Of a stretch of 64,000 nt of DNA, positions 12,348 through 21,710 are shown piece by piece (position 1 is the stretch's first letter; every line of letters begins with the position of its first letter). The DNA lies in IMG/VR virus record IMGVR_UViG_3300044960_000113, positions 120,281-184,280 of that record. One strand, given 5' to 3'. A program made the position numbers and the translations under genes. Source of the DNA: a virus. The notes under the pieces are model-generated. The model was not told the origin of the DNA, ran no database searches, and worked only from the letters and a program-made list of their open reading frames with translations.

Positions 12348-12377
12348 TTAGGGTCTAAACTTTCGTTTTGACCCTAA
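12348..12377 (-). terminator. attenuator terminator C
   Basis: TTAGGGTC/GACCCTAA with a GAAA-capped AAAC/GTTT, followed by GTTGTTTT. Confidence 0.75.
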
Positions 12378-12410
12378 ATATATTTTTTGTGTTTAAGAGA
12401 ATAATATTAT

Positions 12411-12515
12411 TTAGGGCCATTCCCTATTTTGTTTATGATCAATAGTGCGAATAGTGACCTGTGCAGTTTTAATCTGCACTGTCTGTTTTCTATTTGTATT
12501 AATCATAAAAGCCAT
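12411..12515 (-). CDS. leader peptide C (34 aa) MAFMINTNRKQTVQIKTAQVTIRTIDHKQNREWP
   Basis: GGAG RBS; 3' end GGCCCTAAATA pairs with the terminator 5' arm. Confidence 0.75.
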   Translation of the reverse strand: MAFMINTNRKQTVQIKTAQVTIRTIDHKQNREWP

Positions 12516-12715
12516 TTTATATTACTCCATTTAAACATAAATCTATTTATTGATATTTCAAAAATTTTTAATAAAAACCCTAAAATAAGGTTTTTATTAA
12601 AAGTGATTATAATATTGATTTTCCCACAACAAGGTCTTTATCACACCTATCCTTTAGTCATTCATTATCATCACGACCATAAGTCAAACTGCAATTGAGT
12701 ATGAACTGTATTTTT

Positions 12716-12837
12716 AAACTCTGCCCCCGAAGCTGTAAAGTTATAGTCGCTCCGATTTCTGCTCCCACAGCGGCCGATTTGTTGAATTGAGTACTGGGAG
12801 ATACTCAATTTTTTGTCGGCCCTTAGCGACAGAGTTT
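12716..12837 (-). ncRNA. candidate structured RNA (about 122 nt)
   Basis: AAACTCTGTC/GGCAGAGTTT, GGCCGA/TCGGCC, TTGAGTA/TACTCAA, GCTGT/ACAGC; starts just after a promoter. Confidence 0.6.
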
Positions 12838-12856
12838 TTATTTAAAATATGTAGAT

Positions 12857-12885
12857 ATTATATCTAATATCAAACAAAAAGTAAA
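12857..12885 (-). promoter_or_regulatory. sigma70-like promoter TTTACT-N17-TATAAT
   Basis: Exact motif. Confidence 0.7.
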
Positions 12886-12997
12886 CAGTTATTTTGATAA
12901 ATATTTTTATTAATTAATAAATAGATTTTATATATTTAAAATTACTATATAAGAATAATATTCTAGGAGTCTCTGAGATCATCCTAGTGTCTCTGGA

Positions 12998-13342
12998 TTA
13001 TATACTTTTTCTAATTTTAACCCAATCTATTTTGTTAAATTTTCGCATATCACATTCCCCAGCAATTTTTAACATTTTAGAAAGAGTATATTTTTCATTA
13101 TCAAAAAGACAATATGTCTCTACCGTATTAATATGAATAGGATTAATAATAATTTTACCTTCTGAAAATTTTGCTATTTGTTTAGAAGTTTCTATTAAAG
13201 AAACATATCCACCTTTCATTAATCTTAATGCAATTACAACAAATTCTCCCCTTTCATTATCATCTGAAAAATCAAATGAAAAATTAATTGTGTGTAAATT
13301 ATTATCTTTAGTTTTACATTCAATAATCAAGTAAGCTTTCAT
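12998..13342 (-). CDS. hypothetical protein
   Basis: ORF track. Confidence 0.6.
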   Translation of the reverse strand: MKAYLIIECKTKDNNLHTINFSFDFSDDNERGEFVVIALRLMKGGYVSLIETSKQIAKFSEGKIIINPIHINTVETYCLFDNEKYTLSKMLKIAGECDMRKFNKIDWVKIRKSI

Positions 13343-13415
13343 AATTTATATAAAAAATAGACAATATAAATTATCAAAAAGAAATAGACATAAACTATTA
13401 AAATTTAAAAATAAT

Positions 13416-14303
13416 TTATGTCCATAAATATCGACGTATTTTAATTAAACGTTCTAACATTTCATCATCTTCTTTAATATAAGATTCTTCTATTTCAATC
13501 ATTTTATCTTGACATTTTTTCCATTCTTCATCTATTTTTTCATCATTATCTTCTATCATATCAATGATACTATTTTTTCCATTTTTGTATTTTGAATTAT
13601 AATACTCAGTATATCCAGATTCATCCATTGGATCTTTTCTCATTGGTCGAATAAATTTCCACCAAACATAAAGATCAAGAATTTCTAATGCAGCTTCAGC
13701 CTGATGTGTTGGTTTCATATATTCAGGATTATTTTTTCTTTTTTCATCTACTACATCTTTTCCTTCTTTTTCTTCCAACCAAGTATAACCAAACCAATTA
13801 TCATCTTTTAATAATTTTGTTTCCCATAAAAGATAATCGACGCCTAATTGTTGACTTCTAATAGGAATAAATTTATGTATAAAATATGGTAAATATTTGA
13901 CATACCATGGTTTTTTAGAATTATCACACCACATATTTAAACTAGCTTTTTCAATTTCAACAAAATCTACTAAAAGTTCAAACATTCCATGTAACATTTT
14001 TTCTTCTGTTTCATGCCATGAACCTTTTGATAAACGAGTATTAATTATATGAGATGGTGAAATAAAACGTAAGTTAAACCAATATGCAAAATTATCTAAT
14101 TTATCTTTTGGCCAATAGACTATATCTTGAAGTAAATCTAAACCATCTTCAGATAACCAATATAAAAATTTATTTTTTTCTTTAGCTTTTTTATGATATT
14201 CTTTCCAACCTTTTGCGTCTGCTGCTAAAGGTTTAGGATCAATACCTCCCAATTTTTTTAACCAATTAGAAAATTTAGAACAACTCCAATATGAAACTCT
14301 CAT
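13416..14303 (-). CDS. hypothetical phage protein
   Basis: 295-aa ORF with AGGAG RBS. Confidence 0.75.
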   Translation of the reverse strand: MRVSYWSCSKFSNWLKKLGGIDPKPLAADAKGWKEYHKKAKEKNKFLYWLSEDGLDLLQDIVYWPKDKLDNFAYWFNLRFISPSHIINTRLSKGSWHETEEKMLHGMFELLVDFVEIEKASLNMWCDNSKKPWYVKYLPYFIHKFIPIRSQQLGVDYLLWETKLLKDDNWFGYTWLEEKEGKDVVDEKRKNNPEYMKPTHQAEAALEILDLYVWWKFIRPMRKDPMDESGYTEYYNSKYKNGKNSIIDMIEDNDEKIDEEWKKCQDKMIEIEESYIKEDDEMLERLIKIRRYLWT

Positions 14304-14372
14304 AATTTTGTCTCCTATTATAATAGGTAATAAATATATACTTTGAATAATTAAAATTATATAATTATCGTT

Positions 14373-14660
14373 TTATTCATGTAATTGAATATTTTTTCCT
14401 GATTTTAAAATATTAAAATTATCAATTATTACACCAAATACATATGCCATAGTAACAGTTAATGAAATACTAAAAGCCCATGTTAATGCAGATGTATGTA
14501 ATGAATTTGTTGGTTCTCCATTTATTATTAACCATGTTATAAGTGACCAACAATATAAAAGTGTAACAACAATAATATTTTTTCTAATTGTTTTTGTTGG
14601 TAGTTGATTTTGATTTTGTATTTGTTCTGACATTTTAATTCCTTCTCCTAAATAATTCAC
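14373..14660 (-). CDS. two-TM membrane protein
   Basis: Two hydrophobic segments; likely start at MSEQ after AGGAG. Confidence 0.6.
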   Translation of the reverse strand: MNYLGEGIKMSEQIQNQNQLPTKTIRKNIIVVTLLYCWSLITWLIINGEPTNSLHTSALTWAFSISLTVTMAYVFGVIIDNFNILKSGKNIQLHE

Positions 14661-14676
14661 ATAATTTTACTTTCGG

Positions 14677-14764
14677 GGGCGGAAGGTGTGGGACTCGAAC
14701 CCACGAGACCATTGCTGGTCCACTGCTTTCCAGGCAGTTCTCATAGCCGCTAGAGGAACCTTCC
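14677..14764 (-). tRNA. trnS: tRNA-Ser(GGA), ends in CCC
   Basis: ACTGC-CTGGAAA-GCAGT; near-identical to 15752-15839. Confidence 0.9.
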
Positions 14765-14863
14765 ATTTTACAAAATAAAGGAGATGTCTAACCTCTCAAA
14801 CCAACCCAGTATTAATATTATATATCATTCTATAGCATTATTTATATACTAAATTTAAAAAAT

Positions 14864-14890
14864 AAAAAGCGAACTACAAGTTCGCTTTTT
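14864..14890. terminator. bidirectional intrinsic terminator
   Basis: AAAAAGCGAAC/GTTCGCTTTTT. Confidence 0.75.
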
Positions 14891-15086
14891 ATCTCAACCA
14901 TACTTTTTATCGTATAGTTTTAACGCATTTATTCTAGCTAAAAACAATCTTATCTTAATAATATCATCTAATTCTTCTCTATGTTTAACTAATCGTATAG
15001 ATTTAGATTGTAACAAAACATCAAAATCTATATCTATATCATTTAATTCTTGATTGTTTGTACCAGTTAATAAAAAAATAATTCTA

Positions 15087-20966: not shown

Positions 20967-20967
20967 A

Positions 20968-21043
20968 TGGCACCACCAAAGGGTCATGCTCCCATCCTTA
21001 TAGATTGACAGTCTATTATGCTCATTATTAACACTATGGTGGT
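20968..21043 (-). tRNA. trnD: tRNA-Asp(GTC), T-loop AGCATGA
   Basis: ATAGA-CTGTCAA-TCTAT; G73. Confidence 0.8.
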
Positions 21044-21048
21044 TCAGA

Positions 21049-21123
21049 TGGCGGTCTATCCGGGACTCGAACCCGGTTCAATGGCGTGACAAGCCACCAT
21101 AATAACCCATATACGAATAGACC
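21049..21123 (-). tRNA. trnD: tRNA-Asp(GTC)
   Basis: GTGGC-TTGTCAC-GCCAT. Confidence 0.92.
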
Positions 21124-21135
21124 TAATAAAAAATT

Positions 21136-21212
21136 TGGTGCGGGTACCCAGATTCGAACTGGGACTTAAACGTTGGCAACGTTTCGTGCTAACCATTAAA
21201 CACTATACACGC
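21136..21212 (-). tRNA. trnG: tRNA-Gly(GCC)
   Basis: AAACG-TTGCCAA-CGTTT. Confidence 0.9.
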
Positions 21213-21221
21213 ATAACATAT

Positions 21222-21296
21222 TGGTAGACCGTAGGAGATTCGAACTCCTCTTCCCAGATTGAAGGTCTGGTCGCCTGCGCCAGCTGCTCACGGTCC
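21222..21296 (-). tRNA. trnE: tRNA-Glu(TTC), C33
   Basis: CCAGA-CCTTCAA-TCTGG. Confidence 0.85.
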
Positions 21297-21303
21297 ATAT
21301 TTT

Positions 21304-21374
21304 TGGTATCCCGTACCAGTTCTGCCCCCGGTCCCTTTTGAGGCCCAATGGCGTCACTAGCTGCCTCATGGGAT
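21304..21374 (-). pseudogene. degenerate tRNA (anticodon stem 3' strand missing; TCA at the anticodon position)
   Basis: Acceptor, D and T arms and CCA present; TTGGG has no partner strand. Confidence 0.6.
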
Positions 21375-21407
21375 ATTTCTCTAAATTGTAAAAGAACTTA
21401 ACACATT

Positions 21408-21482
21408 TGGTGCGGGGTAGGAGAATCGAACTCCTTATTTCTGGTTGGAAGCCAGACGTGTAACCAATGACACTTACCACGC
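21408..21482 (-). tRNA. trnG: tRNA-Gly(TCC)
   Basis: TCTGG-CTTCCAA-CCAGA. Confidence 0.9.
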
Positions 21483-21494
21483 ATATAAAACAAT

Positions 21495-21521
21495 TTAGGG
21501 CTTCTTTTAAAAAAGCCCTAA
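21495..21521 (-). terminator. attenuator terminator B
   Basis: TTAGGGCTT/AAGCCCTAA then ATTGTTTT. Confidence 0.75.
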
Positions 21522-21554
21522 GTTTAGATAAAAAATCTTAACTTAGAGCTCACA

Positions 21555-21644
21555 TTAAATATCCTCCCCGCGTTCATCGCGATCAACACGACCTGTTCCG
21601 GTAACCCGAATAGTCATGATTGAGATTGAAGTAATGTTAAACAT
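21555..21644 (-). CDS. leader peptide B (29 aa) MFNITSISIMTIRVTGTGRVDRDERGEDI
   Basis: AGGAG RBS; GAGCTCTAAGTT just after the stop pairs with the terminator 5' arm. Confidence 0.8.
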   Translation of the reverse strand: MFNITSISIMTIRVTGTGRVDRDERGEDI

Positions 21645-21681
21645 TTATTGCTTGCTCCTATTAAAAATTTACTATATTGGT

Positions 21682-21710
21682 ATTATATATAGATTTTTCT
21701 AAAAAGTAAA
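21682..21710 (-). promoter_or_regulatory. sigma70-like promoter TTTACT-N17-TATAAT
   Basis: Exact motif about 40 nt upstream of leader B. Confidence 0.72.

Follow-up and report, generated by a model that had tools for sequence, protein, structure and literature searches.

Our results make it likely that three leader-peptide transcription attenuators gate the tRNA arrays of this phage, and that one of them (unit A) also gates arfA. Each block of tRNAs would probably be made only when ribosomes are slow to cross the matching codons of the short leader ahead of it. We analysed a window of 64,000 nucleotides from a 184-kb viral genome (positions 120,281 to 184,280 of IMG/VR record IMGVR_UViG_3300044960_000113), and all coordinates given here are window positions on the minus strand. 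We demonstrate the parts of the units, their mutually exclusive pairings, their conservation, and, in four phage lineages, a statistical correspondence of leaders with their arrays. In full-text literature searches we found no published account of such control for tRNA genes, and none for phage tRNA arrays, as the original prediction had supposed.

Architecture of the three units

The original prediction described three tRNA clusters, each headed by a short ORF with a ribosome-binding site (RBS), a segment at or just after its stop codon, and an intrinsic terminator whose 5′ arm pairs with that segment over 11–12 bp. All of these parts lie on the minus strand where they were placed. The ORFs are 29–34 codons long and their RBSs are purine-rich, 9–13 nt upstream. 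In several leaders the RBS is 11–15 nt from the start codon, a spacing that counts against the attenuator reading. We refer to the antiterminator segment as segment 2, and to the 5′ and 3′ arms of the terminator as segments 3 and 4. Segments 2 and 3 form 11 pairs in unit A (including one G-U; dG −20.2 kcal/mol, z −6.1), 12 in unit B (two G-U; −16.0 kcal/mol, z −4.2), and 11 in unit C (one G-U; −14.9 kcal/mol, z −4.7). None of 300 shuffles reached these duplex energies. TTTACT-N17 promoters, which had been predicted for two of the three leaders, are found 37–48 nt ahead of leaders A and B.

Unit A has two promoters. The proximal one (18500..18536; −35 at 18536-18531, −10 at 18513-18508) overlaps a TATAAATA box at 18507-18500 and is kept in the relatives L019, L046, and L048. 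The distal copy (18591..18618; TTTACT, 16 nt, TATTAT, TG-extended) is its tandem duplicate. Leader ORF A (18364..18459, 31 codons, RBS 18476-18472) encodes a hydrophobic peptide. Segment 2 (18366..18376) covers the final codons and the first base of the stop codon. It is followed by a small A/T-rich hairpin between segments 2 and 3 (18348..18361) that is kept in four relatives with varying loop length, and that is possibly a pause site. Terminator A (18300..18335) consists of segment 3 (18335-18325), the 3′ arm (18317-18309), and a T-tract (18308-18300). The first gene behind it encodes the alternative ribosome-rescue factor ArfA (18168..18284, 38 aa), with an RBS that begins about 8 nt past the T-tract. 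We identified ArfA by its match to Pfam profile PF03889 (26.8 bits versus a cut-off of 25.5, E = 3.5e-6). Only 1 nt past the ArfA stop begins a non-canonical cloverleaf tRNA with a CAT anticodon (18093..18167), which was missed by ARAGORN and by Rfam. It folds as a consensus cloverleaf and is 100% identical in L046 and L048. Array A follows (15412..17958) with tRNAs for Trp, Ala, Phe, Val, Tyr, Val, and Tyr, a 225-aa ORF, and tRNAs for Pro, Ser (three), Thr, Cys, and Leu; an atypical tRNA (15584-15505) lies between those for Cys and Leu.

Unit B is more compact. Its promoter (21682..21710; TTTACT, 17 nt, TATAAT) is conserved in L019. Leader ORF B (21555..21644, 29 codons, RBS 21659-21655) ends 4 nt before segment 2 (21540..21551), and terminator B (21487..21524) comprises segment 3 (21524-21513), the 3′ arm (21503-21495), and the T-tract (21494-21487). 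Array B (20808..21482; Gly-tcc, Glu, Gly-gcc, Asp, Asp, Arg-acg, Arg-tcg) starts about 5 nt past the T-tract. ARAGORN did not report its two Arg tRNAs, which came from Rfam or from manual reading of the sequence. Neither unit A nor unit B has space for a promoter between its terminator and the gene that follows. Hence, these two terminators must be read through if the downstream genes are to be expressed.

In unit C, leader ORF C (12411..12515, 34 codons, RBS 12528-12525) has no TTTACT-family promoter nearby, and we found no ortholog of this leader. Segment 2 (12408..12418) spans the stop codon. Terminator C (12340..12380; segment 3 12380-12370, 3′ arm 12355-12348, T-tract 12346-12340) has a long loop that holds a small inner hairpin. 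Array C (11600..12224; Asn, Lys, Ile, Gln, His) begins about 115 nt past the T-tract.

An upstream antiterminator partner is a property of only these three terminators in the 184-kb genome; 13 other terminators have z values between −1.4 and +1.4. Several tRNA clusters of the genome are without such a unit. In folding predictions, RNA that extends up to the terminator 3′ arm, without including it, adopts the antiterminator in all three units. For unit B this fold is retained even when the folded sequence runs all the way from segment 2 to the T-tract. Since the truncated RNAs all fold as antiterminators, only a ribosome at the stop codon could favour termination. A 1:2 pairing is present in the full-length folds of A and C. 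Its lower part is not conserved, and the truncated naked RNAs prefer 2:3.

Leader composition, recurrence, and conservation

Leaders were said to be enriched in the amino acids of the clusters behind them, and the strength of this match differs among the three units. It is strong for leader A, whose residues 4–25 use only and all 11 amino acids of its cluster. Methionine counts among these 11 because we accept the CAT-anticodon tRNA. The core of leader A has a chance probability of 1e-5 in its own genome, and its in-set run of 22 residues exceeds that of every other ORF among 1035 small ones; codons that depart from the array anticodons include two TTA and one ACA. For leader B the match is good to fair. 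Gly, Arg, Asp, and Glu make up 12 of its last 17 residues as predicted, out-of-set residues make up half of the leader, and the chance probability is 0.01, with an 8-residue run that ranks first among the 1035 small ORFs. All four of its Arg codons are CGN. For leader C the predicted count is correct (15 of 34 residues in-set), and all five array amino acids do occur near the stop, within residues 25–30. The enrichment claimed for it is barely above chance (p about 0.02–0.04), and run length does not set this leader apart.

Five further units were found afterwards, either by a blind terminator/antiterminator scan or via the tRNA arrays themselves. They share the design and have no detectable sequence similarity to leaders A–C, and we regard this recurrence as decisive. 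One is in the distant metagenomic phage L047, two are in the 345-kb IMG/VR phage G001, and two are in the cultured Ralstonia phage RsoM2USA. In L047, an uninterrupted stretch of 40 residues is composed of exactly the 13 amino acids that its 19-tRNA array serves. One unit of G001 covers all 16 of 16 amino acids with 42 of 43 residues in-set, and the other covers 4 of 4 over 14 residues. Unit 1 of RsoM2USA is in-set throughout residues 1–31, and 21 residues of unit 2 comprise only and all 9 amino acids. Up to the antiterminator, leaders in four of the five units use almost only and all of the array amino acids, and in the fifth 10 of 12 are represented. Residues outside the set are confined, in nearly every unit of this group, to the first few codons or to codons that encode or abut the antiterminator. 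In six of the eight units the stop codon overlaps segment 2 or is only a few bases away from it, those of RsoM2USA resembling A–C; in L047 and G001 the ORF extends 6–7 codons past segment 2.

We applied one definition of the core to all leaders and derived the amino-acid sets from tRNA calls. The combined probability (Fisher) for eight units in four phage lineages is 5.8e-24. Coverage of the array's amino acids is complete in six of the eight units, and seven of the eight leaders hold the longest in-set run among the 136–1035 small ORFs of their genome. Where a genome has several arrays, each leader (7 of 7) is enriched most strongly in the amino acids of its own. The matching is mainly at the amino-acid level. 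Codons match array anticodons only slightly better than expected (175 of 187 versus 167.7 expected, p = 0.018). Arg codons do follow the Arg anticodons of the array: only CGN occurs with ACG or TCG, and AGA/AGG occur only where TCT is also present.

Metagenomic relatives retain units A and B; XacN1, also a relative, lacks the system. The frame, start codon, and RBS of leader A are kept in L019, L046, and L048 with synonymous changes, and segment 2 of unit A is invariant in four phages. Third codon positions do not vary across the 3′ half of leader A, an indication of constraint at the RNA level. Of the covariation to be expected in relatives, that of the stems is present. In terminator A of L019, two base pairs have changed in a compensatory manner, so that the 3:4 and 2:3 helices can both still form, the latter through G-U pairing. 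Leader B of L019 retains its 29-codon length and frame with more than half of its codons and residues changed. There is no clean covariation between leader codons and the tRNAs that L019 has lost. Its Gly and Glu tRNAs in cluster B are lost or decayed, yet the leader keeps Gly and gains Glu codons, and its leader A includes codons for Ile and Gln, for which no downstream tRNA was seen.

Proposed mechanism and competing explanations

In the model we propose, a phage promoter would start transcription and a ribosome would begin the short leader ORF. As the RNA emerges, segment 2, located at the stop codon, would pair with segment 3. This antiterminator would be the default fold, allowing RNA polymerase to continue into the tRNA genes. 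A ribosome that arrives at the stop codon before segment 3 emerges would cover segment 2; segment 3 would then pair with segment 4, and transcription would stop. The unit would, in effect, time the ribosome's crossing of the leader. Since the leader codes mainly for amino acids that the downstream tRNAs carry, scarcity of any of these charged tRNAs would delay the ribosome and yield more of exactly that tRNA block. An ample supply would shut the block down, a negative feedback on tRNA supply. We infer the translation of the leaders, the race between ribosome and polymerase, and the response to tRNA shortage. That the units are attenuators, as originally suggested, is supported by the need for read-through in A and B, the predicted default fold, the recurrence in five further units, and the Arg codons that follow the array anticodons; every part of the suggestion open to a check by sequence agreed with expectation. 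Classical attenuators use runs of regulatory codons. In the phage leaders the majority of amino acids have just one or two codons, hence our model has to assume that one hungry codon is enough to be sensed.

The position of arfA fits a switch that responds to ribosome stalling. It lies behind an attenuator in two lineages, this phage and RsoM2USA, where unit 2 shows the order leader, terminator, ArfA as in unit A. Judging from the tRNA that starts 1 nt later, the arfA message probably ends just after its own stop codon, and this layout suggests a non-stop control logic. It is a tentative idea, and on present sequence evidence a rather doubtful one, that attenuators, arfA, and tRNA arrays form an inducible viral counter-defence regulon. 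If they did, a host anticodon nuclease or other tRNA-depleting defence would cut a tRNA, ribosomes would stall at the matching leader codon, and the phage would switch on a ribosome-rescue factor along with the block that contains the replacement tRNA. The leaders would then serve as sensors of the class of tRNA being attacked. Plain supply-and-demand control fits equally well as a trigger by a host anticodon nuclease.

One could also argue that these are genuine attenuators which respond to translation capacity in general, be it ribosome availability or overall elongation rate, rather than to particular tRNAs, and that leader composition has no role in sensing. The architecture alone needs only a ribosome race, a downstream arfA fits a general stress signal, codon-level matching is weak, and leaders B and C contain many out-of-set residues. 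We nevertheless think this unlikely, since it leaves unexplained why the eight leaders, from four lineages, keep to the amino acids of the arrays they precede and in six units include all of them, and why the leaders of one genome differ in step with their arrays. It is more unlikely still that the small ORFs are genes for peptides with a function of their own (in the case of leader A, say, a membrane peptide), with terminators that merely end tiny genes and arrays that use other signals. The leader A peptide is hydrophobic and fairly conserved among close relatives, and because the three clusters divide amino acids roughly by chemical class, any biased peptide would match one of them. However, unrelated leaders in other lineages obey the same roster rule, one of them with 16 amino acids and no chemical class. 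The missing promoter space after terminators A and B, antiterminators that overlap ORF ends only at these terminators, the turnover of more than half of the leader B residues in a preserved frame and length, and the invariant third positions of leader A also argue against a peptide function.

We give just as little credence to a trans-acting factor on the leader RNA, such as uncharged tRNA bound directly or a phage antitermination protein, that sets read-through while translation of the ORF is incidental. T-box and protein-dependent systems do use terminator/antiterminator switches. But positions 11300-21800 contain no match to a T-box or any other Rfam cis-regulatory model at E up to 1, and the leaders, at about 150 nt, are without specifier-loop architecture. 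Neither the location of the stop codon at segment 2 in most units nor the conserved open frame, start codon, and in-frame composition rule would be expected. Least credible of all is that the match reflects chance and selective attention in the original prediction. Leader C alone is not significant by run length, and a perfect assignment of three leaders to three clusters has a probability of 1 in 6. Against this stand the value for leader A, obtained with uniform cores and sets from tRNA calls, and the discovery of five of the eight units afterwards in other phages; the combined probability rejects a chance match for the set as a whole. Attenuation by leader peptides that match their arrays is therefore the reading we prefer.

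Relation to known systems

The closest known systems are the multivalent leader-peptide attenuators of enterobacteria, ilvGMEDA (Ile/Leu/Val) and thr (Thr/Ile), along with trp, his, leu, and pheA. The phage units share with them a short leader ORF (translated in enterobacteria), a Rho-independent terminator, and an antiterminator that excludes the terminator and has its upstream strand at the ORF end. In both, the regulatory codons name the amino acids of the operon, and a ribosome at the stop codon favours termination, or would do so in the phage. Unlike the enterobacterial attenuators, the units are phage-encoded and would regulate tRNAs (plus arfA) rather than biosynthetic enzymes. Their leaders draw on up to 16 amino acids, mostly once or twice each, whereas the enterobacterial leaders contain runs of one to three amino acids. 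We did not find the conserved 1:2 protector hairpin of trp-type attenuators in these leaders. The naked leader RNA folds as antiterminator, so a lack of translation should lead to read-through and not to super-attenuation as in trp.

The pheM leader attenuator controls the E. coli pheST operon, which encodes phenylalanyl-tRNA synthetase. Here too, leader-peptide attenuation acts on a component of the translation apparatus rather than on amino-acid synthesis. pheM differs in that its target is a synthetase, it responds to a single amino acid by way of a run of Phe codons, and it is not located ahead of tRNA genes. T-box riboswitches, in turn, share a terminator/antiterminator switch that responds to tRNA charging, which is the response we propose for the phage. 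They control genes of tRNA charging and amino-acid supply, bind uncharged tRNA directly, and need no translation, whereas the phage leaders carry a conserved ORF. In E. coli, arfA is controlled by tmRNA through a non-stop mRNA, and ArfA is made only when translation is in trouble. The phage arfA differs in being placed, additionally, behind a putative leader-peptide attenuator.

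Layout of the three units

The contig behind the window is 184,280 bp long, has a G+C content of 27% and carries T4-like genes; the window is its last 64 kb. ARAGORN reports 33 RNA genes in the window, a permuted tmRNA among them. Upstream of each of three tRNA clusters lies a short ORF (the leader) and a terminator, and in these units (A, B and C) leaders, terminators and clusters are all on the minus strand. Leader A (18459–18364) has 31 codons, leader B (21644–21555) 29 and leader C (12515–12411) 34, each with a purine-rich ribosome-binding site. Other tRNA clusters of the genome are not headed by leaders (Thr-Asn at 4867, Ala-Gly-Gly just before the window and Arg at 29994).

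Leaders A and B are preceded by a promoter of a family (TTTACT, then a TG-extended −10 after 16–17 nt) that occurs about 15 times on the minus strand; none lies near leader C. The promoter before leader A is duplicated in tandem (18500–18618, minus strand), with a distance of about 82 nt between the copies, and a TATAAATA box of the T4 late type overlaps the proximal one. A promoter of the same family at 12885 (12590–12885, minus strand) is followed by about 250 nt without a convincing ORF and with a weak hairpin at the end, immediately before leader C. The product may be a small RNA, or the stretch may serve unit C as a long 5' leader.

At the end of each leader, or directly after it, lies a segment (segment 2) complementary to the 5' arm of the terminator (segment 3): 18376–18366 in unit A, 21551–21540 in unit B and 12418–12408 in unit C, all on the minus strand. 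For every strong terminator found in the whole genome we searched for an upstream pairing partner and compared the result with 300 shuffles. The pairing energies at terminators A, B and C are −20.2, −16.0 and −14.9 kcal/mol (z = −6.1, −4.2 and −4.7), values reached by 0 of 300 shuffles. The remaining 13 terminators have z values between −1.4 and +1.4. Hence, the antiterminator pairing that the original prediction had claimed for the three units is borne out.

RNA that ends just before the 3' arm of the terminator (segment 4) is predicted to adopt the antiterminator fold in all three units, whether or not the ORF sequence is included. For unit B this fold is predicted to win even when the 3' arm and the T-tract are present. 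Read-through is therefore the default predicted fold, which a ribosome at the stop codon could tip to termination. The ribosome-binding site of the first gene in unit A, arfA, begins about 8 nt past the T-tract of its terminator, and the first tRNA of unit B begins about 5 nt past its own. At these distances read-through is needed for downstream expression.

The first gene behind terminator A encodes an ArfA protein of 38 amino acids (Pfam PF03889, above the cut-off). It is followed by a tRNA with anticodon CAT, a conserved noncoding element, and Trp, Ala, Phe, Val, Tyr, Pro, Ser, Thr, Cys and Leu tRNAs. The CAT tRNA (18093–18167, minus strand) folds into a cloverleaf with an unusual T-loop and escapes both ARAGORN and Rfam. 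Its counterparts in the metagenomic relatives L046 and L048 show 100% identity, against about 78% in the flanks. Because it starts 1 nt past the arfA stop codon, 5' processing of the tRNA would leave an arfA message that ends at the stop codon, a layout that recalls the non-stop control of E. coli arfA. No Rfam family matches the noncoding element (about 140 nt, ~17960–18100, minus strand, between the CAT tRNA and tRNA-Trp), whose identity is 90% in the relative L019 and 80% in L046. Between Cys and a Leu-tag tRNA lies an atypical tRNA-like gene (15505–15584, minus strand; 24.9 bits, below the Rfam threshold). Its anticodon loop reads CAA (Leu) by manual reading, whereas low-threshold ARAGORN calls Arg; the homolog in L001 has TAA in the loop. 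The same genome also encodes a permuted, two-piece tmRNA (32160–32506, minus strand).

Unit B carries Gly, Glu, Gly, Asp, a second Asp, Arg (ACG) and Arg (TCG) tRNAs. The last three (20808–21043, minus strand; Arg ACG with a long variable arm) were recognized by Rfam or manual reading and missed by default ARAGORN. Unit C carries Asn, Lys, Ile, Gln and His tRNAs. Between 11600 and 21482 (minus strand) the 20 amino acids are thus partitioned among three leader-headed clusters without overlap, as 11 + 4 + 5.

Leader composition

We call a residue in-set if its amino acid is carried by tRNAs of the array behind that leader. The background was taken from the phage's own long ORFs, and for every leader the core was defined by the same rule, starting at codon 2 and stopping one codon short of the antiterminator. 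The original prediction that leaders are enriched in the amino acids of their own cluster holds for leader A (23 of 26 core residues in-set, p = 1e-5) and leader B (12 of 28, p = 0.01), and is weaker for leader C (15 of 31, p = 0.035). Own-cluster enrichment is 1.9-, 2.0- and 1.5-fold for A, B and C, and every other leader-cluster pairing stays below 0.8. Leaders A and B each have the longest in-set run among the 1035 small ATG ORFs of the genome; leader C is undistinguished by this measure. It does hold all five amino acids of its array inside six residues, as do about 2% of small ORFs. Leader B has CGN codons at each of its four Arg positions, although AGA and AGG make up 64% of the Arg codons of the genome.

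One could argue that the bias of leader B is a by-product of its G+C-rich structure. By manual reading, the leader frame has 12 in-set residues and the two alternative frames have 4 and 8, which argues against this explanation. Leader A might be read as a lipoprotein or membrane peptide. Its Cys is too close to the N-terminus for this, Ser, Thr and Pro abound in the stretch, and the other units would be left unexplained.

Including units from other phages, the Fisher combined p for eight units is 5.8e-24, and 7 of the 8 leaders come out on top when all small ORFs of the same genome are ranked. When leaders and arrays are paired in all ways within the three genomes that have several units, the own array gives the highest enrichment for all seven leaders. 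His lies in a different unit in each lineage, and it is found in the leader of that unit only. Glu belongs to the arfA unit and its leader in the Ralstonia phage RsoM2USA, and to unit B and its leader in the window phage. Judged from these sequences, amino acids in leaders appear to follow their tRNA genes. In-set Arg codons include AGA or AGG only in units whose array contains an Arg tRNA with anticodon TCT. The match of single codons to the array is in small excess over expectation (p = 0.018). The rule that links leader and array is mainly one at the level of amino acids.

Close relatives and unrelated phages

With the region as megablast query, 50,697 phage records yielded tRNA-level matches only and hence no cultured relative at the DNA level. 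IMG/VR scans with the 225-aa and CCA-enzyme proteins, and with two exact DNA patterns of unit A, gave no match. Homologs of the neighboring 295-aa and 225-aa genes belong mostly to phages without nearby tRNAs. A tblastn search with two ArfA proteins returned nothing useful, probably because the queries are short and of low complexity. Three metagenomic relatives were reached via neighboring genes, with the NUDIX neighbor as the successful anchor. L019/L001 has units A and B, L046 and L048 have unit A, and no ortholog of leader C was found.

In unit A of the relatives the promoter, ribosome-binding site, start, frame, small spacer hairpin and terminator are kept, and segment 2 is invariant. Two terminator pairs are altered on both sides in L019, and pairing with segment 2 is maintained via G-U. 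These compensatory changes preserve both the 3:4 and the 2:3 stem, where covariation had been proposed as a check. The leader A peptide shows synonymous as well as non-synonymous changes. As in the window phage, a 22-residue run in L046 and L048 uses only and all 11 amino acids, whereas leader A of L019 breaks this rule with Ile and Gln. By a rough count, the excess of leader A substitutions that stay in-set is not significant, because the genetic code puts most codon neighbors inside the set.

Unit B of L019 keeps its 29-codon frame despite changes in more than half of the codons, and Asp, Glu and Arg are again abundant in the peptide. In this unit the Gly and Glu tRNAs are lost or degraded without a matching leader change. 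L019 is the closest relative, and its stretches 7320–7570 and 9312–9430 show a decayed-looking first tRNA behind terminator B, with the Glu and Gly-gcc tRNAs absent, and a degraded arfA frame and CAT tRNA behind terminator A. The expected covariation of tRNA loss with leader codons is therefore not clean, and close relatives do not prove it.

Independent replicates come from a blind scan of all fetched loci for terminators with an upstream partner, followed by inspection upstream of every tRNA array. The same design, with unrelated leader sequences, is present in three further phages: the distant metagenomic phage L047, the cultured RsoM2USA (343.8 kb, MG752970.1) and G001, a complete 345-kb IMG/VR phage. 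The TATAAATA box heads leaders in all three. In L047 (44% G+C) a 51-codon ORF behind the box precedes 19 tRNAs for 13 amino acids, and exactly those 13 make up its first 40 residues; the codons of the five out-of-set residues lie in or beside the antiterminator. Unit 1 of RsoM2USA has 15 tRNAs, and the first 31 leader residues are all in-set. Its unit 2 carries ArfA and then Pro, Cys, Glu, Tyr, Leu, Trp, Ser, His and Val tRNAs, and 21 consecutive leader residues use only and all of these nine. The tRNA region of the Xanthomonas phage XacN1, the named relative of RsoM2USA, lacks attenuators of this kind.

In G001 the amino acids are divided into Leu, Ser, Tyr and Trp and the other 16. Fourteen consecutive residues of the leader before the Leu, Tyr, Ser and Trp array come from these four only. 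The 43-residue leader of the second unit contains all 16 amino acids of its array, and a single Leu, which lies within the antiterminator. Both leader ORFs (L054 and L055, minus strand) begin 5–9 nt past the TATAAATA box and share their first four residues. Given this short distance, they may be translated from leaderless mRNAs. In G001, arfA is served by a promoter of its own and is not headed by a leader.

A proposed ribosome race and its possible trigger

No match to a T-box or other known cis-regulatory RNA was found in Rfam, and such an RNA was dropped for this reason. A trp-like 1:2 protector was set aside as well: a 1:2 pairing appears in the full-length folds of units A and C, but its lower part is not conserved, and truncated RNAs favor the 2:3 pairing. 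The modeled folds point to a race and not to an exact trp design: the antiterminator would form unless a ribosome is already over segment 2 as segment 3 emerges. The small conserved hairpin between the two segments is a possible pause that sets the timer. In such a race every leader codon would count. This would account both for the restriction of the entire stretch up to the antiterminator to array amino acids and for the listing of all of them. A codon that no array tRNA can supply would raise a false alarm, and an amino acid missing from the leader would leave its tRNA unmonitored.

What would slow the ribosome? The original prediction pointed to host nucleases that cleave tRNAs. Plain supply-and-demand control is at least as likely a trigger as host anticodon nucleases. 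RsoM2USA has a G+C content of 41% and its host 67%, and the paper that describes the phage does not mention leaders or terminators (PMC8504454). The position of arfA behind the switch in two lineages is compatible with ribosome stalling of any kind.

It has long been asked why phages carry tRNAs and how these are controlled. If the units work as we infer, phages gauge decoding speed by codon class and set their own tRNA supply by feedback. The leader sequence would then be a readable label of the purpose of the downstream array, and arfA would tie tRNA supply to ribosome rescue. The units also offer a direct handle on whether phage tRNAs answer a codon-usage mismatch or host tRNA-cleaving defenses. 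Since the same design occurs in the cultured RsoM2USA, it can be tested at the bench now.

Leader-peptide attenuation is a textbook mechanism. We know of no bacterial tRNA operon that is controlled in this way, and full-text literature searches turned up no report of tRNA genes under leader-peptide attenuation, whether in phages or in other systems. The novelty would lie in its application to tRNA arrays, in its multivalency and in the default-on fold. With up to 16 amino acids, it would be the most multivalent attenuator known. The race model also predicts constitutive read-through when the start codon is removed, a feature that sets it apart from the trp attenuator.
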